DNA of 64,000 nt from a virus: IMG/VR virus record IMGVR_UViG_3300032298_001038, positions 32,001-96,000 of that record; one strand, given 5' to 3'. Below, in pieces: positions 9,597 through 35,602 of this stretch. Each line of letters begins with the position of its first letter. The first letter of the stretch is position 1. The position numbers and the translations under genes are program-made. The notes under the pieces are model-generated. The model was not told where the DNA came from and made no database searches. It was given only the letters and a program-made list of their open reading frames with translations.

Positions 9597-9668
9597 CTGC
9601 CCGGGTAAGACTCGAACTTACAACCCCAGCATTAACAGTGCCGTGCACTACCATTGTGCTACCGGGCA
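9597..9668 (-). tRNA. trnN: tRNA-Asn(GTT)
   Basis: TGCCCGG-TA-GCAC AATGGTA GTGC-A-CGGCA CTGTTAA TGCTG-GGGTT-GTAAG TTCGAGT CTTAC-CCGGGCA-G. Confidence 0.92.
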
Positions 9669-32545: not shown

Positions 32546-32914
32546 TTAATTGTTTTCGGCGCGGGATTGCAGAAACGACGAATAGACTTTCGCCGCTGCG
32601 GCGAGTTCTTTTCCCATCGCTTTGACTTCGTCGAGGATGTCACACACTTCCTGCGCGTCGTCGTCTGAAAATTCTTCGATTTCGATCTTGGCTTTGACGA
32701 GCCGGATGTGGGCGCGTGAGCGACGGATAGTCTCAAACTGAACGTCCATGTCGATTTTTTCAAGCGCCTCTGCAATAGCCTTGGCGATCGGATTGCTGTC
32801 CTTGCTCTGCTCGACGAGAGATTCAATGTCTCGCTCGATCTGCCGAAGCCGAATCAGCCCTTCATCGATCAAATCCAAAATCTGTGTGCGCTCGTTATCG
32901 GTGAATTGCATCAT
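32546..32914 (-). CDS. Coiled-coil hypothetical protein
   Basis: 122 aa, GGAGG RBS. Confidence 0.72.
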   Translation of the reverse strand: MMQFTDNERTQILDLIDEGLIRLRQIERDIESLVEQSKDSNPIAKAIAEALEKIDMDVQFETIRRSRAHIRLVKAKIEIEEFSDDDAQEVCDILDEVKAMGKELAAAAKVYSSFLQSRAENN

Positions 32915-32935
32915 GCAACCTCCTGAATAGATATG

Positions 32936-32976
32936 AAAAAACCGGGGCGGGTAGATTGTTGCCTACCCGCCCCGGT
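32936..32976 (-). terminator. Rho-independent terminator closing the repeat-array transcript
   Basis: 14-bp stem ACCGGGGCGGGTAG/CTACCCGCCCCGGT followed by a T run on the minus strand. Confidence 0.85.
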
Positions 32977-32979
32977 CGC

Positions 32980-33703
32980 AGTTTGCCAATGCATGCCTCG
33001 CCGGAACAAGCCTCATCAGGCATCGCCCAGCCTGTCCAAGCCTGCCGCGGATAGCCGAACCACTCCCGGCCTCTCCTCGCCCTGCCTAACCCTGCCTGCC
33101 GAACCGAGCCTGACCCTGCCTCGCGGAGTCAAGCCCTGCCGTGCCTGCCGTGTCTATGCCTCTGCCCGCCGGTCCCGGCCACTCCCGGCCAAGCCCAGCC
33201 TCGCCTGCCGTGTCTATCCCGGCCGGGGCGCTCCCGGCCTTGCCATACCTCGCCTGCCGAGCCTATCTGGCCGCGTCGAGACGAGCCGTGCCTAACCATG
33301 CCTGCCATCCCGCGCCCGTCATACCGCGCCTTGCCACGCCTGTCCGAGCCTGCCGTGTCTAAGCGACACCGATCCTCACCAAAGCATGCCGTGCCTTGCT
33401 CTGCCTGCCTCGCCATGTCGCTGCTCGCGCGTCCACGCCGTGCCTTACCCAGCCTGCCGGTCCAAACCGAACCTTGGCTATCCACACCTCACCGCTCGTC
33501 GCCCCGCCTCGCCGTGCCATGCCTGCCCAGCCCTGTCAAGCCGAGCCATGCCTAGGCATGCCGAACCGAACCGCGTCCAGTCCAAGCCTGCCGCGTCGTG
33601 CCTAGCCGAACCTAGCGTTGCCCTACCAAGCCTGCCGTGTCTATGCAGTTGCAAGCCAATTCTTGCCCATCCCGGCCACGCCTAACCCAGCCTGCCGTGT
33701 CTA
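32980..33703 (-). repeat. Non-coding array of 13 units of tandem NN-GGY pentamers delimited by GGCAGGC (candidate guide-RNA array, VIPR-like)
   Basis: GCCTGCC on plus at 33040, 33094, 33143, 33203, 33252, 33300, 33348, 33403, 33452, 33521, 33586, 33630, 33690; five preceded on minus by TAGACAC; 5-nt periodicity within units. Confidence 0.88.
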
Positions 33704-33721
33704 AATGCTCAGGCTCGATGC

Positions 33722-34207
33722 TCAGGCTCGCGCCACGCGCCGATTGCGCCGGCGTGTGGCGTTGCGGGCTACACGATCCAAAGCAGCGAACACAGGCGTC
33801 AACTCGCGCAGCGATTCGTACTTGCGTCGAACTCGCTGCAACTCGTCAATCGCCTGCTGCAACAACTGTGCGCGCATTTCGGCACTGCTCATCACGTCGG
33901 TGAGTGCACGATAGCCACCACCGCCGCTTTTGCGATCCGAAACGAGCGACACGAACATCGGCATACGAACACTGCCGTTCGGCGTGTCGAGTACTTCGAT
34001 GTTCAACCGGATGATCTTCCTCGCCTGCTCCAATCGAAACTGGTGCGCGGCTTCGGTGTCATCCCATTCAAACTCTGCGTGGAGCGCAGTGTTTTCATCA
34101 CGAGCAAACTCCACAACCGCTTCGGGCGGAACGCGGCCGTCGTGCTCGTTGTAAATCTGCGTCAGTTCTTCCTTGATGGAAGAGATTGCTCTACGGCGTC
34201 TCGCCAT
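33722..34207 (-). CDS. Accessory protein of the Cas7-like/pentamer-array locus, function unknown
   Basis: 161 aa, LHAEFEWDDTEAAHQFRLEQARKIIR motif; lies between the RAMP-like gene and the array. Confidence 0.8.
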   Translation of the reverse strand: MARRRRAISSIKEELTQIYNEHDGRVPPEAVVEFARDENTALHAEFEWDDTEAAHQFRLEQARKIIRLNIEVLDTPNGSVRMPMFVSLVSDRKSGGGGYRALTDVMSSAEMRAQLLQQAIDELQRVRRKYESLRELTPVFAALDRVARNATRRRNRRVARA

Positions 34208-34224
34208 AAGAACTCCTTGTTAAA

Positions 34225-35028
34225 TCAACCCTTCACACACTCGAAATGACCCCAGCCCATACCGCACGAGTTGGGCGAGTCAGCGCGGCCTTCGCCGACG
34301 CCGACCTGCATCCCGGCACGCAGCATGAGGTTGGCGATGTCAGCCGGCGTAAACATGTCGGCGTCGAAGCGCACGCGAACCTTGGCCCGCCACGATTCAA
34401 ACATGGCGCGCACACGAATATCAGCGACGCCGGTCGCATTGCGCACCGTGTGCTCGACGTGCTTCGGCTTGGCGTCCACCAACTTGCCCTTGCCATCCGC
34501 GTACAGATGAATCAGCGGCGTACCCTCGACAGCATCGAAGCCGTCGGCCTCGACGAAGATGGCCTTCTTCGCCTTGGTCTTGTGATAACCCACGACCACG
34601 CAGGAGTCAACCAGCGCGTTTCGCAGGGCACTTGCCGGGATGCCACACCAACCCTTGGTCGAGCGGTGCTGGGCTTCCTTGAAGTTCGCCTCGAAGTCCT
34701 TGGCCTCGCGCTTCTTGCCCTTGGAAGCCGTGGAGCCGGCGGCCTGCTTCTCGCGCATCATCTCGCGTGCCTTCTTGCCGAACGCCAACTGCACGTACGG
34801 CGCCGTGCCGCGGATCACGATCTCCACAGTCTTGAAGTTGGGCGCGGTGATCGTCACGCCCAGCCTTTCGGCGACGGCGATATCGATCTTATTACTCGGG
34901 TCAAGGTGAGTTTCAACGATATCTTTTACGCGCTTACGAAACACGCCATCTTCAATCTTGGATGACTTGGATTGCGCGGTCTTAGTCTTGGTCGCCGTTT
35001 TCTTCGAACCCTTGAGCATCGTTGCCAT
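34225..35028 (-). CDS. Stand-alone Cas7/RAMP-like protein (Vipr-like)
   Basis: beta1 TVEIVIRGTAPY, GIPASALRNAL (cf. RAMP IPGSSLKGAL), WRAKVRVRF, C-terminal G-loop LMLRAGMQVGVGEGR...GMGWGHF. Confidence 0.82.
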   Translation of the reverse strand: MATMLKGSKKTATKTKTAQSKSSKIEDGVFRKRVKDIVETHLDPSNKIDIAVAERLGVTITAPNFKTVEIVIRGTAPYVQLAFGKKAREMMREKQAAGSTASKGKKREAKDFEANFKEAQHRSTKGWCGIPASALRNALVDSCVVVGYHKTKAKKAIFVEADGFDAVEGTPLIHLYADGKGKLVDAKPKHVEHTVRNATGVADIRVRAMFESWRAKVRVRFDADMFTPADIANLMLRAGMQVGVGEGRADSPNSCGMGWGHFECVKG

Positions 35029-35042
35029 GTCTATTCCTTGGT

Positions 35043-35077
35043 AAAAGAAAAACCCACGGCGAAAGTGCCGTGGGTTT
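35043..35077 (-). terminator. Rho-independent terminator ending the tRNA/tmRNA cluster
   Basis: 11-bp stem AAACCCACGGC/GCCGTGGGTTT, T-rich tract on the minus strand. Confidence 0.8.
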
Positions 35078-35088
35078 AAATAACAAAA

Positions 35089-35243
35089 GCGTGCCCCGGG
35101 AATTGCACCCGAGTGGTTTTGGTACTCTAGCCTGCCGTATAACCCCGACAGACAACCGCGTACAATTTTTGACGTCGGTTACGCCGACGTACGTACACGT
35201 ATCATAGAGTAGGTTATCCCAACCAGTTCGCTAGAACGCACGC
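35089..35243 (-). ncRNA. Candidate 155-nt tRNA-like ncRNA of unknown family
   Basis: Acceptor-like stem GCGTGC/GCACGC stacked on T-like arm TCGGG-TGCAATT-CCCGG; long central helix and two hairpins; starts 5 nt after the tmRNA 3' end. Confidence 0.65.
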
Positions 35244-35248
35244 ATAAG

Positions 35249-35602
35249 TGGAGCCGGCGGGAATCGAACCCGCGTCCAGAAACGTTTCCAGTAAGAACGT
35301 CTACATGCGTAGCCAGTTATGTGTCACCAACTGGCAATGCTATCCGCACACTTAGCGGAGTCAGGCGGTTTACCGCCATCTCGCCCGATTACTTTGCCGG
35401 ACCGACGCAGGTGGCTTACCACCATCAACCTGATTGGGCAATGAGGCTCAGGTCGCCCCACTCGCGGTCCTGACTAGGTCAGGCAGCGAGGGCCGGAGCA
35501 GAAGCGCCGGTTAGAAACTTAATCGGCTTTTAACGTGGCCAACCGATCAACCACGGCATGCAATCCAAACCTTCTCCGTCCTGTCGATACCAGTACGGCC
35601 CC
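35249..35602 (-). ncRNA. ssrA: tmRNA
   Basis: 5' GGGGCCG..GGTATCGAC, 3' GCGGGTTCGATTCCCGCCGGCTCCA, G3-U70 pair; tag ORF (A)GASAPALAA* at 35508-35479. Confidence 0.93.

Follow-up and report, generated by a model that had tools for sequence, protein, structure and literature searches.

Introduction

What is a lone gene for a Cas7-like RAMP protein doing in a phage genome, beside a second small gene and a non-coding tract of five-nucleotide repeats? The question is raised by positions 32936 to 35028 of a 64,000-nucleotide stretch of DNA (hereafter the window) from the IMG/VR record IMGVR_UViG_3300032298_001038, a complete virus of 198,312 bp with direct terminal repeats, of which the window covers positions 32001-96000. 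An earlier note, made from the letters of the window alone, had read this region as a candidate RNA-guided system independent of CRISPR and had proposed a match to VIPR (Viral Interference Programmable Repeat) systems. Such systems have indeed been published, in three bioRxiv preprints of 2026, as the note described them, and homology, a Cas7-like fold and synteny support the membership of this locus. With a probability of roughly 90%, we regard the locus as a VIPR system of a complete 198-kb phage, comprising a vipr gene, a vap-like gene and a staggered array of 13 guide RNAs (vrRNAs).

VIPR systems occur mostly in phages and consist of a Vipr RAMP protein, a vap gene and vrRNAs in which GGY and NN alternate, with one Vipr protomer per repeat and the NN bases pairing non-contiguously with the target (10.64898/2026.04.26.720920, 10.64898/2026.04.26.720927). 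The outcome is transcriptional silencing of competing elements, whose DNA is recognised with every third base skipped, and VIPR has been put forward both as the viral system from which the RAMP effectors of CRISPR descend and as a new, programmable logic of DNA binding (VIPR preprints, 2026). Seven types, I-VII, are distinguished, and staggered arrays are among the architectures described in 10.64898/2026.04.26.720920. The system used for comparison here is the type II VIPR of Escherichia phage SUSP1 (Vipr YP_009199429, vap1 YP_009199428).

Judged from sequence, every defining feature of VIPR that such analysis can address is present at the locus. There is a homologous Vipr, and next to it, on the same strand, an array well above the required minimum of four YNNGG/GGYNN repeats, in which GGY is kept and NN is hypervariable; the minimal composition of vipr plus one accessory gene is also found, in a virus, with no Cas1 or CRISPR array detected. 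This kind of system is already published, and the locus is therefore a divergent addition to it, which differs from the studied type II in its accessory gene and in the architecture of its guides. It is of interest as a well-delimited divergent VIPR whose phage is large, complete in sequence and adapted to a host not yet in culture, and 13 staggered guides make an unusually long array.

Organisation of the locus and grammar of the array

As the earlier note had laid out, two genes, an array and a terminator follow one another on the minus strand. The vipr gene (34225..35028) encodes a Cas7-like RAMP protein of 267 aa, identified by its open reading frame (ORF), fold and profile, with its core at residues ~62-267. 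The ORF of the vap-like accessory gene (33722..34207), whose 161-aa product matches phrog_15946, a family of unknown function, begins 17 nt past the vipr stop with an AAGGAG ribosome-binding site ahead of it. The array sets in 19 nt past the stop of this second gene and extends from ~33703 to 32990, a non-coding tract of ~714 nt delimited by its periodicity and by phase parsing. An intrinsic terminator (32977..32940), with a stem and a T run, closes the unit; the note had correctly placed it but had put its stem at 14 bp, whereas 16 pairs are formed, 11 of them G-C, around a 6-nt loop and followed by six T and CAT. The 121-nt 3' end of the unit has a folding energy of -62.7 kcal/mol (z = -5.2). 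At the other end, a terminator-like hairpin on the same strand (35050..35077), ~22 nt 5' of the vipr start, forms the upstream boundary.

The array carries the strongest period-5 signal in the 64-kb window, with a lag-5 autocorrelation of 0.44-0.49 compared with ~0.25 at other lags, and no other GGHNN cluster exists in the 198-kb genome, this one comprising 83 units. In-phase GGYNNGG pairs number 62, compared with 5.7 +/- 2.3 and a maximum of 15 in 1000 shuffles. Ninety of the 128 in-phase pentamers begin with GG, and the information content at pentamer positions 1-5 is 2, 2, 0.63, 0.03 and 0.02 bits, respectively. C predominates at position 3 (C 57, T 17, A 15, G 1; n = 90), while at the NN positions all 16 dinucleotides are in use. 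A repeat of period five is incompatible with coding, so that the ORFs called within the array are composition artefacts.

At 13 places the phase slips by -1, each time at GGCA/GGC (a 4-nt step), and the tract therefore divides into 13 abutting units that open with this sequence and have 8-13 pentamers each, several of which units include degenerate in-phase pentamers. On the minus strand the units start at 33696, 33636, 33592, 33527, 33458, 33409, 33354, 33306, 33258, 33209, 33149, 33100 and 33046, and individual guides are named below by these starts (U33046, for example). The step is a property of the family as a whole: across 142 related loci and the window, a gap of 4 (mod 5) is found at 603 of 891 junctions between perfect runs, and among the non-zero shifts it predominates in 100 of 102 loci. 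This fits the published staggered vrRNA arrays (Fig. S18 of 10.64898/2026.04.26.720920), in which consecutive guides overlap by 1 nt, each guide beginning where its predecessor ends, in a manner like the GGCA/GGC step of the window. Exact copies of TAGACACGGCAGGC stand at five junctions (minus-strand starts 33703, 33643, 33361, 33216 and 33156), and the motif AGACA[CT]GGCAGGC opens the arrays of the two closest relatives, L005 and L006; these TAGACAC headers appear to be a second level of array punctuation. When the window is compared with its nearest relative, L005 (Vipr 84% identical), some units are letter-for-letter identical and others differ, a cassette-like turnover by unit swapping.

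The Vipr protein

The 267-aa protein has no match in Pfam, NCBIfam or PADLOC and matches phrog_4652, a family of unknown function; its own family is large (2811 clusters at E <= 0.001), with strongly conserved motifs. An AlphaFold2 (AF2) model was obtained with a predicted local distance difference test score (pLDDT) of 75 and a predicted template modelling score (pTM) of 0.65. The kinship with Cas7, Csm3 and Cmr4 that the earlier note had suspected was borne out by Foldseek, in which the best matches of the model are Cmr4, Csm3, type VII Cas7 and Cas7-11. In VIA-align all 50 of 50 rows are Cas7-type RAMPs, with Z of 8.8-7.2 over residues 62-267 against full-length Csm3; the top Csm3 alignment has Z 8.8 and a root-mean-square deviation of 3.6 over 146 aligned residues. 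Identity to Cas7-family RAMPs is 7-17%.

The RAMP hallmarks claimed from the sequence fall where they should, on a predicted strand (65-75), a helix (132-145) and a glycine-rich loop (243-260), all in invariant columns. Within the loop G243, G245, E246, G247, R248, G256, G258 and G260 are invariant, and the hairpin 189-209 bears the invariant R207, which aligns with the SUSP1 thumb residue R138. In the model, the protein thus has the RAMP architecture of RRM core, glycine-rich loop and thumb, and resembles the Cas7-family RAMPs of CRISPR systems in these three respects.

Homology to the SUSP1 protein is found by profile. The second of nine weak matches in a profile search of PDB sequences is 36pp_D, the 'SUSP1 Vipr protein' (E 0.03), which aligns in the region of the G-loop. 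Comparison of the family by hhalign gave 87.5% (E 3.6e-6) against the single SUSP1 Vipr sequence and 96.9% (E 1.4e-10) against the SUSP1 family, in an end-to-end alignment of 174 columns that pairs window residues 65-267 with SUSP1 2-191. Five residues that contact GGY are named in the cryo-EM paper on SUSP1 (H17, R138, D177, W178 and R179; PDB 36pp). R138, D177 and R179 correspond to R207, E246 and R248 of the window protein, each invariant; W178 corresponds to G247 and H17 to L81, neither of which conserves the SUSP1 residue, and an invariant Q80 adjoins the latter. An 8-residue insertion in the G-loop adds a second glycine motif, GMGWG, whose W259 aligns with SUSP1 F182 and might take over the role of W178. 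Such natural variation at GGY-contact residues could inform engineering.

Ahead of the core lies a Lys-rich N-terminal extension (residues 1-~57; 34858..35028, minus), delimited by alignment, pLDDT and the GC content at third codon positions (GC3). Residues 1-25 have a pLDDT under 50; the match to homologues with 50-60% identity is confined to residues ~58-267, and in distant homologues the extension is variable or absent. GC3 is 0.60 in codons 1-55 and 0.83 in the rest of vipr (Fisher p = 7e-4), in agreement with the earlier suggestion that the extension was added.

By homology with SUSP1, we infer for the locus transcription, processing, RNA binding and DNA silencing, in the following manner. 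The unit would be transcribed as one minus-strand RNA ending at the 32977..32940 terminator, and its array would be cut at the GGCA/GGC junctions into guides of about 45-70 nt. Vipr protomers would polymerise along each guide, one per pentamer, holding GG-(C/T/A) and exposing the two variable bases. The exposed dinucleotides would pair with double-stranded DNA and leave out one target base in three, usually that at the wobble position of a codon, and transcription of the bound gene would be blocked. Competitor or host genes would be the likely targets.

Related loci in other phages and bacteria

The arrangement of gene, gene and array that the earlier note had expected in other phages recurs widely. 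Same-strand arrays of at least 8 GGYNN units adjoin a vipr homologue in 74 of 80 IMG/VR loci, and an array on the opposite strand was found in one of the 80. A homologue of the 161-aa protein accompanies the RAMP gene in 71 of these 80 viral loci, and some loci keep arrays without a detectable homologue of this partner gene. Relative to the two genes, the array may be placed downstream, upstream or in between. Among individual loci, L081 has a very long array of 145 units (2156-2938), and L071 has a second large array of 85 units (1332-1962), ~2 kb upstream of vipr and separate from the gene-adjacent one.

Two cultured phages bear the module. Cyanophage Cy-LDV1 (g34-g33, L001) has a homologue 48% identical to the window Vipr, a second small gene and same-strand GGYNN arrays, and Mycobacterium phage Saal (gp51-gp52, Cheoctovirus, L002, 36589-36834) has a homologue 33% identical, also followed by a second small gene and with same-strand arrays; ~25 mycobacteriophage records related to Saal bear the same module. 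The arrays of Saal and Cy-LDV1 lie upstream of or between the genes, whereas that of the window lies downstream. Both phages are temperate and carry the module, annotated only as hypothetical proteins, in the immunity and excision region, flanked by repressor/antirepressor genes on one side and the excisionase gene on the other. Their modules could serve as experimental models for the clade.

Genomes of many phyla contain relatives of the protein. The closest come from metagenome-assembled genomes of Planctomycetota (71% and 61% identity), and for this reason the host of the phage is probably a member of the Planctomycetota. Altogether a very large clade is documented, of about 2800 protein clusters in many phyla, including those of mycobacteriophages and a cyanophage, with its own accessory protein and a modified G-loop.

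Candidate targets of the guides

Targets were searched for under the 1-nt-skip rule, by which the NN bases pair with the target and every third target base is skipped, in the phage genome itself, in IMG/VR and in 101-401 genomes of Planctomycetota. No guide matches its own phage genome better than shuffled guides do, and VIPRs are reported not to self-target (VIPR preprints, 2026).

The clearest candidate belongs to the last guide of the array, U33046 (32993..33046, minus). When every third base is skipped, tt ca tg ga ct ga tt cc ga (at), the NN string of this guide, translates as F-H-W-E-L-E-F-P-E. One exact IMG/VR match at 20 of 20 bases was found, on contig L156, where the match keeps the reading frame, passes over the wobble base of each codon and spells F-H-W-E-L-E-F-P-E-I directly before a GNPPY motif. 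The NN of three degenerate in-phase pentamers of the guide match this target too. The gene concerned encodes 1330 aa and is of the Eco57I family, type IIG or DrmMI-like. When up to two mismatches were allowed, the pattern gave 22 matches in 151 Planctomycetota genomes and none with a reversed control, and most of the matched sequences read FHWE[LI]EFPEV. In five of the 22 the only mismatch is in the tenth codon, and this codon may be part of a 3' end and not of the guide. Nine of the ten matches fetched as loci lie in large DrmMI or type IIG-like ORFs that continue with GFDAxxGNPP[FWY], and the three ORFs scanned score either as type IIG enzymes or as DISARM DrmMI, the latter with up to 1074 bits. 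These genome matches are not independent of the 20/20 match, because they concern the same conserved motif.

As the guide has mRNA sense, it could pair with the template DNA strand only. We put the odds that the DrmMI / type IIG gene family is the real target of U33046 at slightly better than even, which makes it a good lead and not a result. A more tentative proposal, and one we consider rather doubtful, is that U33046 is an anti-defence weapon aimed at the invariant FHWELEFPE motif, directly ahead of the catalytic motif NPPF/W/Y, which would silence DISARM DrmMI and type IIG genes; the silenced gene could be the host's or one on another mobile element. If this were true, synonymous mutations would not let the defence gene escape silencing. 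The targets reported in the preprints are satellites, prophages, other VIPRs and REP decoy sites, and defence genes are not named as targets in any of the three (10.64898/2026.04.26.720920, 10.64898/2026.04.26.720927 and 2026.10.15.759431). A true match between this guide and DrmMI / type IIG genes would extend the role of VIPR from virus-versus-virus conflict to the silencing of host defence genes.

The other guides gave less. U33209 (33150..33209, minus), whose NN string reads D-W/C-L/F-R-V-R-P-G-D/E, has no exact IMG/VR match at 20 or 18 specified bases; with up to two mismatches it gave 17 matches in 401 Planctomycetota genomes and one with the control. These lie mostly in GDRLRVRPGEK, a motif of the P1B-ATPase actuator domain, and also in a PurM motif, with 1-2 mismatches (loci L147-L155), and we cannot tell them from chance. 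Neither U33527 (26 bases) nor U33100 (18 bases) has an exact IMG/VR match, and U33527 has none with up to three mismatches in 101 Planctomycetota genomes. Exact IMG/VR matches of U33458, to a DHFR gene and a portal gene, and of U33149, to an HNH-like ORF of one phage species sampled six times, were judged to be at chance level. Taken together, the four independent exact IMG/VR matches (L156, L157, L158 and L186-L191), in type IIG / DrmMI, DHFR, portal and HNH-like genes, are all in frame with the wobble base skipped; a bulk test of guide matches at 75% showed no codon-frame bias. Other guides have no match within 261 kb around DrmMI-like genes or in ~1 Mb of related VIPR loci, and the guides of other loci do not converge on the DrmMI-like gene family.

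Comparison with SUSP1 and alternative explanations

The locus shares with the SUSP1 VIPR its order of vipr, accessory gene and downstream array on one strand, as well as a homologous Vipr, GGY/NN pentamers with hypervariable NN, a phage as carrier and the lack of self-targeting. It differs in that its Vipr is ~20% identical to that of SUSP1, with a 57-residue N-terminal extension and, in the G-loop, the 8-residue insertion with its second motif GMGWG; the accessory protein is unrelated to vap1, and there is no upstream vrRNA. SUSP1 has ~100-nt vrRNAs with a pseudoknotted tail, whereas the window has 13 abutting guides of 8-13 pentamers with no structured tail and tolerates A at position 3. Assignment to type II (the SUSP1 / P. 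fulva clade) was considered and rejected, there being neither a vap1-like gene nor vrRNAs of 9-16 repeats that end in a conserved structured 3' tail.

Several observations count against our assignment of the locus to VIPR or against the mode of action proposed for it. Sequence identity to SUSP1 Vipr is about 19-23%, and two of the five GGY-contact residues (H17 and W178) are not kept. A stands at position 3 in 17% of units, though SUSP1 Vipr, which binds such repeats as RNA, reportedly excludes purines there (VIPR preprints, 2026). The guides abut, with no structured 3' tail on each as in SUSP1. No sigma-70-type promoter was found in 32800..35300; the unit may be transcribed by polymerase reading through from the cluster of RNA genes that precedes it. 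A single 20/20 match, such as that of U33046, has a chance expectation of ~0.1-0.2 in the scans made, and of nine further guides run against IMG/VR, 101-401 Planctomycetota genomes, or both, none has a convincing target.

Some of these points would be explained if the locus made a VIPR-like ribonucleoprotein that works unlike that of SUSP1, with an RNA target, another spacing rule or an effector recruited via the 161-aa protein in place of a plain block to transcription. We hold this to be improbable. The closest solved folds are indeed the RNA-targeting Csm3 and Cmr4, and the unconserved W178 and H17, the G-loop insertion, the tolerance of A at position 3, an accessory unrelated to vap1 and the want of a 1-nt-skip target for most guides in what was searched would all suit it. 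Yet the pentamer period equals that of SUSP1, three of the five GGY-contact residues are kept, the one strong target match follows the 1-nt-skip rule with a guide whose sense excludes pairing with that mRNA, and neither a nuclease nor a helicase signature is seen in the accessory protein.

It is very unlikely that the array acts as DNA, be it as iteron-like sites for the 161-aa protein or as a G-rich element (an origin, a packaging signal or a G-quadruplex), with the Cas7-like gene as an unrelated neighbour. Such a role would agree with the composition of the array strand, which is 44% G, and with the weak fold matches of the 161-aa protein, which are mostly winged-helix DNA binders. However, in the 74 of 80 loci the array always runs in the direction of the RAMP gene, which points to co-transcription, and some loci keep their arrays even though no partner homologue is detectable. 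Furthermore, a fixed GG accompanies a hypervariable NN, close relatives have exchanged entire units, and the homologous SUSP1 protein has been shown to bind such repeats as RNA.

We give almost no credence to a decayed CRISPR-Cas remnant, that is, an orphan Cas7 beside non-functional simple-sequence DNA, since, apart from the Cas7-type fold, the complete genome has no cas1 and no repeat-spacer structure, both genes are intact, the protein belongs to a family of 2811 members with strongly conserved motifs, and the array grammar is conserved across phyla. The earlier statement that no cas genes or CRISPR array accompany the locus holds genome-wide for Cas1 (PF01867) and for CRISPR-like repeats, neither of which was found in the complete 198-kb genome, while other cas families were not individually searched. 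Membership in class 1 CRISPR-Cas was accordingly rejected; the locus differs from CRISPR Cas7-family RAMPs in that no cas partners were found, in the lack of a repeat-spacer array, in a footprint of 5 nt rather than 6 nt and in its viral context.

The accessory protein and the surrounding genome

The 161-aa product of the accessory gene shows no similarity to SUSP1 vap1 (BLASTP E 53; hhalign 0.5%), and because of this we treat it as a vap-type accessory of a different family. It has no match in Pfam, PADLOC or NCBIfam, and in the protein atlas it matches unnamed viral clusters only. In the AF2 model (pLDDT 88.9) a small alpha/beta core is predicted between a helix at the N-terminus and a helical hairpin at the C-terminus. 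Foldseek gave no match at E <= 0.001 for this model, the winged-helix proteins mentioned above making up most of the weak PDB rows, and a VIA-wide alignment covered the C-terminal helical hairpin only (Z <= 7.1). That the protein binds DNA is a guess.

In the array no Rfam family was matched, ribozymes included, and elsewhere the Rfam scan gave only a transfer-messenger RNA (tmRNA) and six tRNAs. ARAGORN gives seven tRNAs, at 9597, 35604, 35690, 37589, 38490, 39492 and 40213 of the window. The tmRNA (35248-35602, minus; Rfam 125.6 bits) has the tag GASAPALAA and, with two of the tRNAs, lies directly upstream of the VIPR unit.

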